Origin: Patescibacteria group bacterium
GTDB taxonomy: Bacteria; Patescibacteriota; Patescibacteriia; 2-01-FULL-39-33
NCBI GenBank assembly: GCA_041649575.1
Contig: JBAZMW010000001.1
Location: 90,001-122,000 of the forward strand
Length of the DNA: 32,000 nt
Direction: 5' to 3'
Under the pieces are notes generated by a model. It was not told where the DNA came from and made no database searches. It saw nothing but the letters and a program-made list of their open reading frames with translations. This document shows, in pieces, positions 21,483 through 27,142 of the stretch (position 1 is its first letter; the number at the start of each line of letters is the position of its first letter). Position numbers and translations under genes: made by a program.

Positions 21483-21614
21483 AAAAACAAATGATCCGCG
21501 ATAGCGAAATGGGTCGAGGCCATAGGCCGAGACGGGCAGAAGCGAGCAAAGCGAGAGTCGATGAATGCGACCTTAGGGAGCATTCAGCGCTGCCCCGGAA
21601 GAGCAACCGGCGTT
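21483..21614 (+). other. Partial tRNA-Asn 5'-half copy interrupted by a GC-rich structured insert, within the tRNA leader
   Basis: 21483-21505 (AAAAACAAATGATCCGCGATAGC) repeats 21640-21662, which is 12 nt of upstream sequence plus tRNA positions 1-11. 21600-21611 (AGAGCAACCGGC) repeats 21671-21682, the D-stem 3' strand and anticodon-stem 5' strand. About 90 nt lie between them where the real tRNA has a 9-nt D-loop. That insert contains the stems GGGCAG/CTGCCC and TGAATGC/GCATTCA. Confidence 0.4.
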
Positions 21615-21637
21615 TAGTATATGGCAAAAGTAACAAA

Positions 21638-23107
21638 CTAAAAACAAATGATCCGCGATAGCTCAATGGTAGAGCAACCGGCTGTTAACCGGTAGGTTGC
21701 TGGTTCGAATCCAGCTCGCGGAGCCAAGAAACTAGATACGAACTCATTTTTTGAAGATGAGAGTGTTCGCTCGCCCAGCCCCGCCAATGGCGGGGCTGGC
21801 CTTCGCTCCGCGACGGCTTCGCCGTCGTTTTGGCGGGAAATGAAGCGAATTTTAATGCTTTCGGGGGAATAGAAAATGTTTGAAAGAAACTTTTTAGCAA
21901 AAAGATTTCTTTCAATTCCTTTGGTAGTTTTGAGTCCGGTAATGAAAAATTTTAGAGTGTCCGAAATGCTTTCGGTGGAAAATTTAGAGCATCCATCCGT
22001 TAGTTCGTATCCAGCGCGGTGTCCCGCTTGTTCGTCGTTGTTTAAGCGAAAAACAAGATTTTCAACATAATTTTTATCAACCGAAATGCGCTCTAAATTT
22101 TCCAAACAAAAATCTTCTAATCGTTCGGCGGACACTTGTTTTACTGAACACGCTTGCCAGTCCTGTTTCATCGTGGCGGTGCAACGATAGTAATAATAGC
22201 GGTTCAATTTTCCAGCGATATATTTGTTGGTAAAACAAGAAGTCATATTTGAACCACACTCTTCACATTTTATAAGTCCGCCGAACAGGAAGTTTTTGTA
22301 CACTCTAAAATTTTTCCGCTTTTCCTTATGAATTTTTTGAGCAAGGGCAAAAATTTCTTCTGAAATTATCGGCTTGTGAATACCTTGATAAATTTCGCCA
22401 TTGTGTAAAACCTTACCTATGTAGATAACATTTCGCAAAATGTGGCTGATATTTGTTTTAGAGAAATTTTTGCCTAACTTATTTTTGATACCTCTATCTT
22501 TCAGCATTTGGTAAGTTTTCGCCGTTGAGCCGGTTTCAATATAAGTTTCAAAAATTGATTTTATTTCTTCCGCTTCTTTTTGGTGCGGGATAAGTTTCTT
22601 ATCTTCTCGCTTGTAGCCATAAGGAGTTAGCCCGCCGTTTGCGAGCCCCTTTTTCGCGCGCTCCAACATTTTGTCTTTTGTTCTCTCGCTGGTTAGCTCT
22701 CGCTCAAATTGAGAAAAAGTGAGCATAATATTGCGAAGCAATCTTCCGGCGGGCGTTGAAGTATCAAACCTTTCCGTAATGGAAATAAAATCAATTTTTG
22801 CTTGCTCAAAAAATTCTATCAGTTGGTAAAAATCTTTTGGAGAACGAGTGAGCCGATCGATTTTGTAGACCAAAACCACATCAATTTTTTCTTTTTTCAA
22901 ATCAGCAAGTAATTCCTGCAAGGCGGGACGTTGTAAAATTGCGCCAGAAAATCCAGCGTCGTTATAAACTTTAAAAACCTGCCAATCATTTTGACTTTCG
23001 ATAAACGACCGGATTTTCTGCTCTTGCGCTTCGCAAGATGAAAATTCTTTTTCCGCTTGGTTATCAGTTGAAACTCTTGTATAAATGGCGCAATTTTTCA
23101 TATTCAT
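21638..23107 (-). CDS. Large serine recombinase (integrase/invertase); 3' end uncertain
   Basis: It has an N-terminal resolvase domain with the catalytic Ser in AIYTRVSTDNQ, plus VYKIDRLTRS. It also has a recombinase domain and a zinc ribbon (CEECGSNM...YYYYRCTA...WQACS). The ORF has no stop until it has crossed repeat A and the whole tRNA-Asn gene in antisense (tail ...PRAGFEPATYRLTAGCSTIELSRIICF). Confidence 0.9.
   Translation of the reverse strand: MNMKNCAIYTRVSTDNQAEKEFSSCEAQEQKIRSFIESQNDWQVFKVYNDAGFSGAILQRPALQELLADLKKEKIDVVLVYKIDRLTRSPKDFYQLIEFFEQAKIDFISITERFDTSTPAGRLLRNIMLTFSQFERELTSERTKDKMLERAKKGLANGGLTPYGYKREDKKLIPHQKEAEEIKSIFETYIETGSTAKTYQMLKDRGIKNKLGKNFSKTNISHILRNVIYIGKVLHNGEIYQGIHKPIISEEIFALAQKIHKEKRKNFRVYKNFLFGGLIKCEECGSNMTSCFTNKYIAGKLNRYYYYRCTATMKQDWQACSVKQVSAERLEDFCLENLERISVDKNYVENLVFRLNNDEQAGHRAGYELTDGCSKFSTESISDTLKFFITGLKTTKGIERNLFAKKFLSNIFYSPESIKIRFISRQNDGEAVAERRPAPPLAGLGERTLSSSKNEFVSSFLAPRAGFEPATYRLTAGCSTIELSRIICF
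21652..21726 (+). tRNA. tRNA-Asn (anticodon GTT), CCA encoded
   Basis: Hand-folded as follows:
- Acceptor stem: TCCGCGA/TCGCGGA.
- D arm: GCTC-AATGGTA-GAGC.
- Anticodon stem and loop: ACCGG/CCGGT with loop CTGTTAA.
- T arm: GCTGG-TTCGAAT-CCAGC.
- Discriminator G followed by CCA. Confidence 0.92.
21720..21870. repeat. Inverted repeat A, left arm (151 bp)
   Basis: It is the reverse complement of 23145-23295 with a single mismatch (21848 versus 23167). It starts inside the tRNA-Asn 3' end and covers the 3' part of the recombinase ORF. Confidence 0.95.
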
Positions 23108-23144
23108 AAATTTATATTATTAGTTTTTAAAAAGAAAAAATTGA

Positions 23145-23295
23145 ATTCCCCCGAAAGCATTAAAATCCGCTTCATTTCCCGCCAAAACGACGGCGAAGCC
23201 GTCGCGGAGCGAAGGCCAGCCCCGCCATTGGCGGGGCTGGGCGAGCGAACACTCTCATCTTCAAAAAATGAGTTCGTATCTAGTTTCTTGGCTCC
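23145..23295. repeat. Inverted repeat A, right arm (151 bp)
   Basis: It is the reverse complement of 21720-21870 (150/151 identical). It lies 37 nt upstream of the recombinase start codon. Confidence 0.95.
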
Positions 23296-23498
23296 CGAAT
23301 TAAAACCTTCGCAAACTTTTGAAATTATTTTGCCAAATCTGATACACAAATCCAAAAAGCGAAACCTGAAATGATACGCCCCGCCACTATTTTTCTGGGG
23401 CAAAGGAGGCGGGGCGACGGACTCGCCCGCGCAGAGGAGGGGTCTGGGGAGGAATCCGCGCGGGCTTCGGCTTTCCTTTTTGAAAAAATCGGCGGCTA
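23288..23498. repeat. Inverted repeat B, left arm (211 bp)
   Basis: It is the exact reverse complement of 26466-26676. It overlaps repeat A's right arm by the 8-bp core (23288-23295). Confidence 0.95.
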
Positions 23499-23502
23499 AA
23501 AA

Positions 23503-23531
23503 TTGAAGAAAAATAAAATTCATGTTAGTAT
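23503..23531 (+). promoter_or_regulatory. Candidate promoter of the cargo operon, followed by tandem ATACT motifs
   Basis: TTGAAG (23503-23508), a 17-nt spacer, then TAGTAT (23526-23531). Three ATACT repeats (starting at 23558, 23564 and 23572) abut the XRE start codon and could be an operator. Confidence 0.4.
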
Positions 23532-23576
23532 AGTTGTGAGGGTTAAGTTCAACGCTCATACTTATACTATCATACT

Positions 23577-23786
23577 ATGGAAAGTAATAAAAAACAAATT
23601 GGGGATAAAATTAAAGCCGTCCGCACAAAACAAGGATTGACGCAGGATGCCCTTGCTCGAAAATGTGATATTCCCTACACAACACTGACAAAAATTGAAT
23701 CAAATGTCATAACCAAGCCGTCAATCCAAACAGTTGTTAAGATTGCCACAGGGTTGGGCATTTCAGTAGATGAACTTTTGAAATGA
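23577..23786 (+). CDS. XRE-family helix-turn-helix transcriptional regulator
   Basis: 69 aa with a typical Cro/C1 HTH (RTKQGLTQDALARKCDIPYTTLTKIESN...SIQTVVKIATGLGISVDELL). Confidence 0.88.
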   Translation: MESNKKQIGDKIKAVRTKQGLTQDALARKCDIPYTTLTKIESNVITKPSIQTVVKIATGLGISVDELLK

Positions 23787-23787
23787 T

Positions 23788-25245
23788 ATGAAATTAACCT
23801 CGCTTACAATAAAAAATTTTCGAAGTATTGAAGAGGAAACTTTTGATATTACAGAAGTTGATAACACCTATACTTTTACGCTCATAGGCATTAACGAATC
23901 CGGGAAAAGTAGTTTTTTGAAAGCAGTTTCGTTGGTTGATAATGATGATGAAAAAGTTATTTTCCCTAAAGATTATTTTGAGGAAACAGAATCAATTAGC
24001 ATTGTTTTGAATTACGAGCTTGAAACACAAGAAGAAAAAGACCTAAAAAGTGCTCTTACAGAAAAGGGATTTGAGAAAGACATTTTATCAAAAATAAAGG
24101 TCGAACAGGTTTCTGTTTGTGCGACTTTTGAACCGGTGGCAAATGCACCAAAGAAAGTTTTTGATCAGATTACATTTCAGCAAAAAGTTTTTGACGACTA
24201 CACCTTACTTGGCGACAAACCTACTAAAAAAGACCCACAACAAACACAGGAGGATTTTGACATTGAGAAGTATTTTGAAGTGCATTTGCCGAAATATTTT
24301 TGGAAAATTGCTCACAGGATTGTTTTTTGGAAATCTGATAGTAAGCACCTTATCAATGAACAAATAAACCTTGATACATTTGCTGCTAACCCTGAAGAAA
24401 CATCAATCCCATTGATAAATTGCTTTGAGTTGGCTGGTGTGGCACAAGATCAAATTGTCTCGCAAGTTGCTAAACTAAAAACTGACGATGCTGAGATAGA
24501 TAATCTTGAAGAAAAGCTTGGAGACAAAGTAACTGCCCATATCAAGAAAGTTTGGTCTAATCATCCAATCAAAATAAAATTTAAGATAAATAATTCATTG
24601 CTAACACTTCTCGTTGAGGATGATAAAGTAAAATACAAATCAAAGACAACCGAGCAGAGAAGTGATGGCTTTCGGCAGTTTATTTCATTCCTCCTAACAA
24701 TTTCGGCAGAAAGCGCGACAAATCAGCTCTCTAATTCTTTGCTATTACTTGATGAGCCGGAAACCCATTTGCATCCCCAAGCACAAGAGTATTTGAAAGA
24801 CGAATTGATTAAGATAACGAGAAATGACGAAAACAACATCGTCTTTTTTGCCACGCACTCAAACTACATGATTGATAAGGAACATATTGAACGATGTTTT
24901 AGAGTTTCCAAACAATCAAACCGAAGGACAAAATTGGAAAAATTTCAAGCAGGTCAGAAATCATATGCGGAGGTAAACTATGAAGTTTTTAATATCGTAT
25001 CTTCTGACTACCACAACGAGCTATATGGATATTTAGAAGATGTAGACAAAACAAAATTAGATGGATTAGATAAAACGAAAAAGTGGAAGAATAAGAAAAA
25101 TAATGGTGTAGAGACAGATGTCTCATTGGCAACTTATATTCGACATTCAATCCATCATCCCGAAAATACACTTAATGCAAAATTCACTCCCGAAGAATTG
25201 GAGGGGTCAATTGAAAGTTTAAGAAAATTGAAATATGGAAACTAA
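23788..25245 (+). CDS. ABC/SMC-like (AAA_15/AAA_21-type) ATPase with an uncharacterised C-terminal domain
   Basis: - N-terminus: LTIKNFRSIEE.
- Walker A: GINESGKSS (23887-23913).
- Signature-like motif: QRSDGFRQFISFLL.
- Walker B: LLLLDEPETHLHP.
- H-loop: FFATHS.
- C-terminal ~100 aa: contains YIRHSIHHPEN (R-x4-H, 25141-25158).
- I recognise no TOPRIM or other nuclease domain. Confidence 0.88.
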   Translation: MKLTSLTIKNFRSIEEETFDITEVDNTYTFTLIGINESGKSSFLKAVSLVDNDDEKVIFPKDYFEETESISIVLNYELETQEEKDLKSALTEKGFEKDILSKIKVEQVSVCATFEPVANAPKKVFDQITFQQKVFDDYTLLGDKPTKKDPQQTQEDFDIEKYFEVHLPKYFWKIAHRIVFWKSDSKHLINEQINLDTFAANPEETSIPLINCFELAGVAQDQIVSQVAKLKTDDAEIDNLEEKLGDKVTAHIKKVWSNHPIKIKFKINNSLLTLLVEDDKVKYKSKTTEQRSDGFRQFISFLLTISAESATNQLSNSLLLLDEPETHLHPQAQEYLKDELIKITRNDENNIVFFATHSNYMIDKEHIERCFRVSKQSNRRTKLEKFQAGQKSYAEVNYEVFNIVSSDYHNELYGYLEDVDKTKLDGLDKTKKWKNKKNNGVETDVSLATYIRHSIHHPENTLNAKFTPEELEGSIESLRKLKYGN

Positions 25246-25558
25246 AAATGTAAAATTTGTTGTTTTTGTTCCACTCTCTCACGCTGGCGCTGTGCGCCAA
25301 GCTCTTGGTGAAGCTGGAGCGGGAAAAATAGGAAATTATGACTTCTGCTCTTTTTCTTCTCGTGGCACCGGTCGCTTTCGCGGTAATGAAAATACAAATC
25401 CTACTATTGGCGAAGCCGGAAAATATGAAGCAGTTGAGGAAGAACGGATTGAGGTGATAGTGCCACGAGATATTTTGAGAGAAGTCATCGAAAAAGTAAA
25501 AAGTGTTCATCCATATGAGGAAGTCGCTTTTGATATTTATCCGCTAGAAAATATATGA
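25235..25558 (+). CDS. Small Nif3/YqfO-insert-domain-like protein
   Basis: 107 aa. The pattern KFVVFVP...H...V..AL..AGAG.IGNY..CSF...G.G.F.....NP.IGE.G....V.E.RIE resembles the inserted domain of Nif3-family proteins as I recall it. It overlaps the ATPase stop by 11 nt. Confidence 0.65.
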   Translation: METKNVKFVVFVPLSHAGAVRQALGEAGAGKIGNYDFCSFSSRGTGRFRGNENTNPTIGEAGKYEAVEEERIEVIVPRDILREVIEKVKSVHPYEEVAFDIYPLENI

Positions 25559-26010
25559 CCGACAAACAATTTCTCCAAAAAGCAATAGAAAAAGCGAGAG
25601 AGTCTGTGGCACAGGGTGGTTTTCCTGCTGGTGCGATAGTCGTTAAAAATGGAGAAATTATCGGCGAAGGAGTTTCTGTCGGCAATAAACTGAACGACCC
25701 GACTAGCCACGGCGAAATGGCCTCAATTCGGGCGGCATGCAAAAACCTCAATACTTCCGATTTATCAAACTCGATACTCTATGCGTCCATGCAACCTTGC
25801 CTAATGTGCCTCGGTGCGTCTATGTGGAGCGCGATACCGAAAATCGTTTTTGCATGCCCCAAAGAGAAAGTATCGACTGAATACTACGGCGGACATTACA
25901 AGCCGTCTGCTATCAACGCAGAACTAACTCGTCCGATTGAATTAGTCCATTTCGCCGAACTGGAGAACGAATCGTTGACGATCGTCCGCGAGTGGGAAAA
26001 ATCATTATGA
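25555..26010 (+). CDS. CDA-fold zinc-dependent nucleoside/nucleobase deaminase
   Basis: It has an H-x-E motif (HGE, 25708-25716) and PCxxC (PCLMC, ending at 25809), in a 151-aa protein typical of the cytidine/deoxycytidylate deaminase superfamily (guanine, cytosine or TadA-like). Its start overlaps the upstream stop (ATGA). Confidence 0.88.
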   Translation: MTDKQFLQKAIEKARESVAQGGFPAGAIVVKNGEIIGEGVSVGNKLNDPTSHGEMASIRAACKNLNTSDLSNSILYASMQPCLMCLGASMWSAIPKIVFACPKEKVSTEYYGGHYKPSAINAELTRPIELVHFAELENESLTIVREWEKSL

Positions 26011-26468
26011 ACACCGACAAACTCGCAAAATTTCTAAACGAAGCAAACAAAGCGACCTACGCCAATAAAACTGCGCCAAAAGTCGCACCCTCTCGTTTAA
26101 AGTCAGAGGATTACCAATTTGAAAAAGACGGACTAATTTATCACGATACTTATTTTGGTGGGCGCGACTTTATCGGCGAGGAAATCGTATACGAAAATGA
26201 GAAACCAGCATGGGGCGCAAATTATTTTGGTTTCGTGCTTGATAAAAGTATTAGCGAGAAAGATGTATACGATTTTCTGCGCCGTGCGCTCATGCAGGAA
26301 TATAATGATGTGATTCCAGTACGAGGACCAAGCAACTTTTCCGTTGACGACAAAGAATATCGTTTTGTTGTGAATGGCGACCTTGCCAATTTCTCTGGCA
26401 CAGAGGAAATTTTATTTGACGGAAAAGTTGTTTATCGCTGTCTAATACACGGAGGATTTATTAGATAG
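26007..26468 (+). CDS. DUF5680-like protein (function unknown)
   Basis: I prefer the start at ATG 26007, which gives an ATGA overlap with the deaminase stop; the track offers GTG at 25992. The pattern KATYANK...YHDTYFGG.DFIGEE.V.....P.WGANYFG matches my recollection of DUF5680, but this is unverified. Confidence 0.65.
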   Translation: MNTDKLAKFLNEANKATYANKTAPKVAPSRLKSEDYQFEKDGLIYHDTYFGGRDFIGEEIVYENEKPAWGANYFGFVLDKSISEKDVYDFLRRALMQEYNDVIPVRGPSNFSVDDKEYRFVVNGDLANFSGTEEILFDGKVVYRCLIHGGFIR

Positions 26469-26676
26469 CCGCCGATTTTTTCAAAAAGGAAAGCCGAAGC
26501 CCGCGCGGATTCCTCCCCAGACCCCTCCTCTGCGCGGGCGAGTCCGTCGCCCCGCCTCCTTTGCCCCAGAAAAATAGTGGCGGGGCGTATCATTTCAGGT
26601 TTCGCTTTTTGGATTTGTGTATCAGATTTGGCAAAATAATTTCAAAAGTTTGCGAAGGTTTTAATTCGGGAGCCAA
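26466..26676. repeat. Inverted repeat B, right arm (211 bp)
   Basis: It is the exact reverse complement of 23288-23498. It begins 3 nt before the stop of the last cargo gene and ends with the core GGAGCCAA (26669-26676). Confidence 0.95.
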
Positions 26677-26687
26677 ATTGTATGTTC

Positions 26688-26716
26688 GCCACCCTTATGG
26701 GTGGTGTTTTGTTTTT
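26688..26716 (+). terminator. Rho-independent terminator, probably the original tRNA-Asn terminator displaced by the island
   Basis: Hairpin GCCACCC-ttat-GGGTGGT followed by GTTTTGTTTTT. It starts 12 nt after the right core copy. Confidence 0.6.
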
Positions 26717-26746: not shown

Positions 26747-27142
26747 ATGAACACCTACAACTGGTATTCACAACTCATCAAACCATTATGGTCACCGCCA
26801 AGCTGGCTTTTTGGACCGGTGTGGACGGTGTTATACGCGATTATAGTCGTTTCTTTCGGCACGGTGTTTTATAAAATGCTTACAGGCAAAATTACTTGGA
26901 TTGTCGCTTTACCGTTTGTGCTCAATCTAGTTTTCAATTTTATTTTTACGCCAATTCAATTTGGACTTAAAAATAATCTTTTGGCGGCAATAGACATTTT
27001 GCTCGTTCTTGGCACACTCGTTTGGGCAATGGCGGCCATTTATCCGTATGCTCGTTGGATCGCATACATCCAAATCCCGCACTTGCTCTGGGTTTCGTTC
27101 GCGACTGTTTTACAATTAACCATTACTTATTTGAATAGATAG
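26747..27142 (+). CDS. tspO: TspO/MBR family tryptophan-rich sensory protein
   Basis: I moved the start to the ATG at 26747, because the track start at 26561 lies in repeat B. The signature is WYSQLIKPLWSPPSWLFGPVWTVLY, and the protein has five hydrophobic segments. Confidence 0.88.
   Translation: MNTYNWYSQLIKPLWSPPSWLFGPVWTVLYAIIVVSFGTVFYKMLTGKITWIVALPFVLNLVFNFIFTPIQFGLKNNLLAAIDILLVLGTLVWAMAAIYPYARWIAYIQIPHLLWVSFATVLQLTITYLNR

Follow-up and report, generated by a model that had tools for sequence, protein, structure and literature searches.

A probable serine-integrase mobile element with an internal inverted attP-like site at a tRNA-Asn gene of a Patescibacteria group bacterium

Insertion of mobile DNA by serine integrases at a short core sequence is well known, and the large serine integrases of phages (TP901-1, phiFC1/EFC-1, A118 and SPbeta SprA) share one set of Resolvase, Recombinase and zinc-ribbon domains and use attL and attR sites with a short common core. 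Here we describe a segment of 4,949 bp (21728-26676) within a 32,000-nucleotide (nt) stretch of an ultra-small bacterium of the Patescibacteria group (GenBank assembly GCA_041649575.1, contig JBAZMW010000001.1, positions 90,001 to 122,000; hereafter the window, to whose first letter plain coordinates refer), which is very probably a mobile element that belongs to a family found across the Patescibacteria and that integrated at the 3' end of a tRNA-Asn gene by means of the serine integrase, int, that it encodes. The element has the domain set and short core of the phage enzymes, and its site behaviour fits the rule that they recombine attP with attB only. Unlike the phages, it targets the ends of tRNA genes (Asn, Gln, Met and others), is about 5 kb long without phage genes, carries its attP within the 3' end of int itself, and contains a second complete, inverted attP inside. 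What is new is that a family of serine-integrase elements keeps this internal inverted attP: our literature search found no description of such a site in serine-integrase elements, nor of such a family in Patescibacteria.

Functionally, the SCC cassettes and the tycheposons are the nearest analogues. Like the element, the staphylococcal cassette chromosome SCCmec, with its CcrA/CcrB recombinases, is a small cargo cassette placed by serine recombination at the 3' end of a conserved housekeeping gene, and tandem arrays of it occur; the recombinase described here is no Ccr equivalog (CcrB is its best NCBIfam match at 203 bits, far short of the 900-bit cut-off), is one enzyme rather than two, and has a tRNA target rather than rlmH. 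The ends of SCC are short imperfect repeats, and SCC is not known to have an internal inverted attP. The tycheposons of Prochlorococcus, a different phylum, are likewise small cargo elements at tRNA genes of streamlined genomes, stacked in arrays; they mostly have tyrosine recombinases (27 of 937 carry a large serine recombinase), many with replication genes, and in the paper describing them (bioRxiv 10.1101/2020.12.28.424599) the term "inverted repeat" occurs only in the title of a cited reference and no internal inverted attP is described.

The tRNA-Asn(GTT) gene (21652-21726, plus strand; ARAGORN; Rfam RF00005, 76.3 bits) is intact with an encoded CCA, and is the B half of the attachment site. 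Its acceptor end, discriminator and CCA together with one further A form the attL core, GGAGCCAA (21720-21727, plus strand), and the same sequence recurs downstream, as an initial annotation of the window had already remarked, to form the attR core (26669-26676, plus strand; string match and repeat search). Adjoining the tRNA is an intact gene for a large serine recombinase, int, and the outer two sites share 8 bp only, in keeping with the earlier assignment of these sites to a serine integrase. To the right of the distal core, the hairpin and T-run noted previously were recovered by a terminator scan as an intrinsic terminator (26687-26716, plus strand), with an 8-pair stem (6 G-C) at 26687-26706 followed by TTTTGTTTTT; terminators of relatives stand directly after tRNA-Asn, and we conclude that this predicted terminator is that of tRNA-Asn, displaced from its gene.

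Comparison with relatives, which the initial annotation had proposed as a check, yielded unoccupied tRNA-Asn genes. The rpoD / tRNA-Asn synteny is kept in the host's family, and in eight family-level relatives with this synteny a terminator hairpin directly follows the tRNA (∼5-25 nt past it), with neither island nor recombinase; the "recombinase" matches in these eight are the tRNA itself aligned with the antisense tail of int. No int was found in 11 sampled genomes of the host family, and int homologues 58-94% identical occur in other families of the class. Compared with a genome GC content of 0.443, the int body (0.373) and the XRE and ATPase genes (0.348) fall in the lowest 1-2.5% of 3-kb genome windows. 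The empty relatives, the distribution of int and the low GC together indicate that site-specific recombination at the end of the tRNA brought the segment in; the recombinase and the empty tRNA-Asn flanks of relatives thus bear out the earlier picture of an island at the tRNA-Asn 3' end with a short core and a displaced terminator.

The same annotation had envisaged two sites sharing an 8-bp core, which is correct for the outer sites and misses a third site between them. Our repeat search revealed two long inverted repeats: I2 (21720-21870 versus 23145-23295; 151 nt, 99%), which has the attL core at its outer end and brackets int, and I1 (23288-23498 versus 26466-26676; 211 nt, 100%), which brackets the cargo. 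Their overlap is exactly a third GGAGCCAA, on the minus strand at 23288-23295, and the region that they cover together, M (23145-23498, minus strand), consists of a P' arm copy (23145-23287), the core and a P arm copy (23296-23498), so that by its sequence M is a complete, intact and inverted attP-like site, P-core-P'. The matching outer arms are the tRNA-side P' copy (21728-21870, plus strand) and the distal P copy (26466-26668, plus strand), and the half-sites therefore run in the order tRNA, core, P', int, inverted P', core, inverted P, cargo, P, core, flank. One attP per element is usual for serine integrases; here a second, intact and inverted, lies at 23145-23498.

The GGAGCCAA 8-mer by itself is weak evidence: it has 8 copies in the window versus 1.5 expected, a number that no shuffle gave. 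It is the long inverted repeats that mark the sites as non-random, whereas recurrence of the 8-mer is insufficient. The arms have no other copy in the 920-kb genome (5 contigs, 97.9% complete). Five more copies of GGAGCCAA are present in the window (1111, 7507, 11972, 14986 and 28519), none with repeat arms. In overall plan, the yeast 2-micron FLP/FRT plasmid is a circle with two long inverted repeats that contain recombination sites and separate two unique segments, one of which encodes the recombinase. The circle of the element, if excised, would share this two-repeat, two-segment plan, with the differences that FLP is a tyrosine recombinase and that the element has no recognizable replication origin or Rep gene.

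We propose the following course of events. The large serine recombinase joined the attP of the element to the 3' end of tRNA-Asn, leaving the tRNA intact and shifting its terminator 4.95 kb downstream; the tRNA had earlier been the site of a second-family element, whose remains are 12 nt. The two modules of the inserted element, int between inverted P' arms and the XRE gene with the cargo between inverted P arms, meet at M. By the rules of serine integrases, which recombine only attP with attB, M should be essentially silent once integrated, and selection on the element retains it, with its arms being homogenized with the outer arms.

Scans of genome and metagenome contigs recovered 118 related loci, 112 of them non-identical, and the named genome records that contain them are all labelled as Patescibacteria-type metagenome-assembled genomes, save a few that are probably mis-binned. 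An inverted repeat around int (median 151 nt, median identity 98.6%) is present in 66 of the 70 loci that could be tested (full-length int and at least 200 nt upstream), and in two of the remainder the repeats had diverged or were initially missed. The second repeat pair, around the cargo and sharing the core, was observed in at least 17 loci, with more under a relaxed search; the distal P copy went undetected in L080, L091 and L143 (G and L numbers are our handles for genomes and loci), in which the int arms are present. Insertion is at tRNA-Asn or tRNA-Gln, or in more distant members at tRNA-Met or tRNA-Glu. ARAGORN is blind to intron-split tRNA-Asn genes, and ∼11 tRNA targets were hidden at first: several apparently non-tRNA flanks resemble the 3' exon of insert-split tRNA-Asn genes that it missed, and group I introns (Rfam RF00028) split the rpoD-linked tRNA-Asn in L012 (G009:C23, 94-471; 67.4 bits) and L015 (G020:C69, 501-771; 95.7 bits).

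The three-site layout is also found in a second recombinase family, 26-28% identical to int, as illustrated by G396, where a tRNA-Asn precedes a recombinase gene bracketed by arms and a 3.5-kb cargo bracketed by arms of 241 nt, with a terminator immediately beyond the distal core. A search of viral contigs with int returned no relatives. The layout is a conserved design, and not an accident of one genome or one assembler. The host genome (G000) itself holds two more large-serine-recombinase genes, ∼30% identical to int, at C5:21716-22642, adjoining tRNA-Glu (C5:21097-21169), and at C3:59504-60457; no inverted repeats of 35 nt or more were seen around either.

To type the orientation of the modules, we used the class of sequence that lies outside each arm of the int module. 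On the 3' side of int this is the tRNA in 58 loci, a P arm of the element's own family (family 1) in 5, and a P arm of family 2 (P2), in arrays, in 6; on the 5' side it is the tRNA in 4 loci and a family-1 P arm in 44 of the 58 typed on that side. Twenty-nine loci could be typed on both sides: 22 have the order P, int, tRNA; 3 have P, int, P2; 2 (L186 and L199) have a tRNA on either side; and none has the order tRNA, int, P. The XRE gene is M-proximal and divergent from int, at 70-103 nt from the M-side arm, in all 11 modules that carry it (10 relatives and the window), and homologous cargo pairs share one orientation relative to int in 34 cases out of 34. Such a fixed orientation indicates that the modules are not in flip-flop equilibrium. 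They are not free flip-flop switches, in agreement with the behaviour of A118 integrase, for which attP gives no reaction with attL or attR, and attP x attP proceeds at less than 5% of the attP x attB rate (PMC3556126).

The two loci with an inverted tRNA-Asn on both sides of int bear on the competence of M. In L186, a 2,425-bp metagenome contig, the tRNAs are two different genes and the arms are 70% identical, while the right-hand tRNA of L199, judged by its similarity to the intron-split tRNA-Asn of relatives, looks like an intron-containing gene missed by ARAGORN. Loci of this form are the expected product of M recombining with a second tRNA-Asn, which suggests that M is a competent attP. 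The host genome has a second tRNA-Asn gene (G000 C3:146075-146153, minus strand), unoccupied and with an identical GGAGCCAA end, which is a potential secondary attB for M.

Several observations speak against an inserted element whose modules stay fixed. The initial annotation had taken the cargo region to be AT-rich, which is true of int, XRE and ATPase (GC 0.35-0.37) and not of the last three cargo genes (25235-26468), which are host-like at 0.432 (0.43 when rounded). The empty-site comparison is with family-level relatives, none from the same genus, and the empty site, searched for in metagenome contigs as an exact string of core and right flank, gave 0 matches; the element's own predicted empty-site junction would run from the tRNA-Asn end straight into ATTGTATGTTCGCC. 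An inverted int module would fit five short contigs (L097, L099, L149, L150 and L167), each typed on one side. All five break off within or beside an arm, at which entries and exits cannot be matched in a de Bruijn graph, so that a mis-join and a real minority inversion are inseparable; these contigs may be either. Finally, two identical attP sites on one double-stranded circle should allow integration in both orientations, which apparently does not happen: either M and the junction attP are not interchangeable in the transfer form, or integrants formed through M do not persist, and our proposal explains neither. We also considered L149 and L150 as circle junctions and rejected this, because the XRE gene directly follows the arm in both, as in an inverted int module or a mis-join.

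These contigs, together with the geometry of the repeats, raise the question of whether the locus works as a twofold invertible switch of the Hin or shufflon kind, in which the recombinase flips the int module (21720/23288) and the cargo module (23288/26669) and so alters its own tail or the expression of the genes. Two inverted-repeat pairs that share one core would permit such flipping, and the int frame crosses the core, so that the last ∼25 residues would differ by orientation. The Hin segment of Salmonella (and likewise Gin, Cin and Pin) also has a serine recombinase gene within a segment bracketed by inverted sites. In invertase systems, however, both orientations are common in populations, whereas both were not found among the surveyed loci; the tRNA-side count is 58 versus 4 with no fully flipped locus, and the constancy of XRE position and cargo orientation points the same way. 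The recombinase is a large one of 489 residues, as against ∼190 for invertases, which end in a C-terminal helix-turn-helix, and its arms span 150-210 nt, where Hin-type small invertases use 26-bp sites and a Fis enhancer (PMC3798978). Moreover, both promoters lie within unique segments and would be left unswitched by flipping, A118 integrase, a characterized relative, does not recombine attP with attL or attR, and every flip-compatible contig breaks at an arm. We therefore regard a switch as quite unlikely.

It is still less probable that the locus is a tandem of two independently moving elements with terminal inverted repeats, one holding only int (21720-23295) and the other a non-autonomous carrier of the cargo (23288-26676). 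The inverted arms around each module do end in the core, whole elements are found in tandem in L137, L151 and L096, and L080, L091 and L143 have int arms with no detectable distal P copy. Against this, inverted sites cannot excise a module conservatively unless the crossover dinucleotide is palindromic, and the fixed polarity of insertion argues otherwise; in addition, a P arm lies beyond the 5' side of int in 44 of the 58 loci typed there, the two modules do not vary in their relative orientation, and no solo cargo module was found in the survey. That M arose as an artefact of assembly, from chimeric joining of reads of the integrated element with reads of its excised circle, is hardly credible: the circle junction would indeed equal M exactly and the genome is a metagenome-type assembly in 5 contigs, yet M stands in inverted orientation within a contig of 245 kb, more than 60 independent assemblies from many studies show this layout, among them small contigs such as the 1,376-bp L022/L086, in which inverted pieces of the arms flank the int segment, and diverged arm pairs (70-95% identity) cannot be created by collapse.

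The position of the crossover can be narrowed by comparing the three sites. In the window their alignment shows homology stopping exactly at GGAGCCAA, and in relatives (G071, L083, L107, L112 and L105) the common sequence is reduced to GAGC, GGAGC or GCAGC and homology stops likewise at these. Because the core shrinks to (G/C)AGC, the 8 bp of the original core are an upper bound on the crossover region, and strand exchange probably takes place within AGC, at tRNA positions 72-74. Of the dinucleotides this offers, AG would be the more likely crossover, since the polarity of insertion is fixed, whereas a palindromic GC abolishes polarity. For the same reason we rejected a GC crossover, with its polarity-free sites and excisable modules. 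A scan for dyad symmetry in the attP of six elements gave at best 10-13 matches of 26, with inconsistent centres.

The two P' copies within an element evolve in concert. Across 27 elements their identity has a median of 100% and a mean of 98.7%, while M copies of different elements have a median identity of 88%, and in 25 of the 27 no foreign M copy is closer to the tRNA-side P' copy than the element's own. In G071, where int has a stop codon, the P' pair has decayed to 86%. The cycle of site-specific recombination cannot homogenize arm copies, which implies arm-to-arm gene conversion or selection for perfect pairing. M has been kept by selection in two distant recombinase lineages and homogenized with the working arms, which points to a role in the transfer cycle.

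What this role might be can be stated only in graded terms. The possibility we favour, tentatively, is a function of M in the excised or transferred form. Insertion by the junction attP alone would part int from its native 3' end and leave it head-on to the tRNA; M-mediated integrants would keep an active integrase, and be lost. Unlikely, and equally so, are two further ideas: that M is a cis-acting accessory site that aids synapsis of attL with attR and replaces a directionality factor, and that it is an integrase-binding operator or insulator between the two promoters, from which it is ∼150 and ∼210 nt away.

An improbable fourth option is that M supplies the second strand of a functional attP. 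In a single-stranded element, arising from DNA uptake or a rolling-circle copy, the junction strand P-core-P' would pair with M, and the serine integrase would act on single-stranded DNA; the folded attP, itself just as improbable, would be a perfect 354-bp duplex with int and the cargo as loops, a serine-recombinase counterpart of the folded attP of CTX-phi and of integron attC. Along this path, which we rate no higher, the integrase would cut the stem and attB, giving a hairpin-capped chromosome whose replication would produce an inverted dimer, to be resolved by attL x attR recombination. By this reasoning the path would reproduce the three-site layout exactly; by symmetry it would leave the fixed orientation unexplained, and it would require an attL x attR step. 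If true, the folded attP would explain why the arms are long, GC-rich and identical. The remaining probability goes to a function other than these four.

The right flank carries the trace of an earlier occupant. A class-wide 16-mer survey identified ATTGTATGTTCG (26677-26688, plus strand) as 12 nt left over from the P' arm of a second family of serine-recombinase elements. The 16-mer GGAGCCAAATTGTATG, which is the core plus the first 8 flank nt, occurs with at most 1 mismatch in 27 of 401 class genomes versus 1 for a reversed control; in those genomes it stands after tRNA-Asn, tRNA-Gln or P-type arms and runs on into ...GTTCGGCGTTTGTTGCC or ...GTTCGGCGTTTGTTGCCTCGGCGC, and the sequence so continued is, by its contexts, assigned to the P' arm of the second family. 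The window matches 12 nt of this arm and then enters the terminator, which indicates that the tRNA was previously occupied and that a mere scar of the earlier element survives. Joining 21727 to 26677, as the initial annotation had suggested for rebuilding attB, would restore the tRNA with its terminator, and the restored site would not be pristine, as it would retain this remnant. The right flanks of other family-1 elements are mutually unrelated, and often terminators, and thus the integrase may read mainly the tRNA half of attB.

Tandem arrays in which a tRNA is followed by a family-2 and then a family-1 element occur in L137, L151 and L096, where two or three elements of different families share one tRNA and at each junction the P arm of one element is joined to the P' arm of the following one. 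The tRNA-Asn 3' flanks of several unoccupied relatives (L010, L011, L013, L016 and L019) start with a TTAGAACTCGTTTT-like sequence that resembles the P'-arm motif ACGAACTCATTTTTT; such flanks could be a natural B' half-site or old element scars.

The integrase gene (int, 21638-23107, minus strand) encodes 489 residues with Resolvase (PF00239, 5.6e-42), Recombinase (PF07508, 4.5e-18) and Zn_ribbon_recom (PF13408, 2.3e-11) domains, each above its Pfam cut-off, and with the catalytic motif YTRVST (AIYTRVSTDNQ, residues 7-17). The nearest solved chain is the catalytic domain of TP901-1 integrase (3.5e-33; A118 integrase, 4e-13), and the closest phage protein is the phiFC1/EFC-1 integrase (38% identity). 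The frame is open across the P' arm and the core: codons ∼413-461 are encoded by the tRNA-side P' arm, and the final 26 codons are antisense to the tRNA. Read directly, this arm contains hairpins at 21775-21799 and 21810-21827, the latter followed by TTTT, a weak terminator-like structure directed at the tRNA, on which a consensus scan made no call. The repeat arms are GC-rich (0.51-0.55).

Just 5' of the int ATG, a promoter-like TTCAAT-17-TAATAA (23116-23144, minus strand) was read by eye, where the consensus scan made no call, and the int start has no Shine-Dalgarno sequence and is leaderless-like. A second promoter-like element, TTGAAG-17-TAGTAT (23503-23531, plus strand), also read by eye, probably serves the cargo operon and lies in the unique cargo segment. 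Both thus seem to sit just within the unique segments, which would make M a 354-bp spacer between divergent promoters.

The cargo genes are all on the plus strand. The first encodes an XRE-type helix-turn-helix protein of 69 residues (23577-23786; Pfam HTH_3, 3.2e-16), and the second an OLD / AriA / GajA-like ABC-type ATPase of 485 residues (23788-25245; Pfam AAA_15, 1.6e-22, and AAA_21; PADLOC Old, 1.9e-25, and AriA, 6.6e-24), which aligns with the ATPase part alone of Toprim-bearing OLD/GajA profiles and is a candidate defence gene. They are followed by genes for a 107-residue protein without a Pfam family (25235-25558), a CDA-fold deaminase of 151 residues (25555-26010; dCMP_cyt_deam_1, 7.6e-24) and a DUF5680 protein of 158 residues (25992-26468; 2.3e-32). 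Profile scans (Pfam, PADLOC and NCBIfam) revealed no Rep-like, primase or polymerase family among the six genes of the element, and none of its genes is recognizable as a recombination directionality factor, which serine integrases require for excision. The last three cargo genes were examined for a possible host origin: homologues of the 107-residue protein, 60-75% identical, occur in relatives in unrelated contexts, and in 2 of 5 cases lie directly 3' of a tRNA gene (tRNA-Lys in G001, tRNA-Ala in G034); the loci of relatives with this homologue hold no deaminase, and a DUF5680 homologue was found only on a separate 2-kb contig of another relative. The first host gene on the right is tspO (26747-27142, plus strand; TspO_MBR, 8e-28).

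Upstream of the tRNA, a leader (21483-21620) repeats 23 nt from around the tRNA 5' end (21483-21505 versus 21640-21662) and 12 nt of the D/anticodon-stem region of tRNA-Asn, the repeats being split by a structured insert. The 70-nt core of this insert (21531-21600) gave no match in Rfam and is multi-copy in relatives (82-94% identity), where typed cases lie ∼50-160 nt from other tRNA genes.

The element has consequences for the way such loci are detected. Perfect inverted repeats of 150-240 nt break assemblies, and most relatives lie at contig ends; an internal attP identical to the circle junction misleads read-based tests of excision, which are ambiguous within 354 bp. Patescibacteria have almost no genetic tools, and a compact integrase with ∼50-bp sites at a universal tRNA 3' end is a natural integration vector; int would also extend the serine-integrase toolbox by a specificity class of its own. 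The prevailing view is that these enzymes require a single attP and disregard attL and attR, yet this family retains and homogenizes a second attP without using it for flipping. Explaining M should reveal an unrecognized step in the excision, transfer or regulation of such elements.

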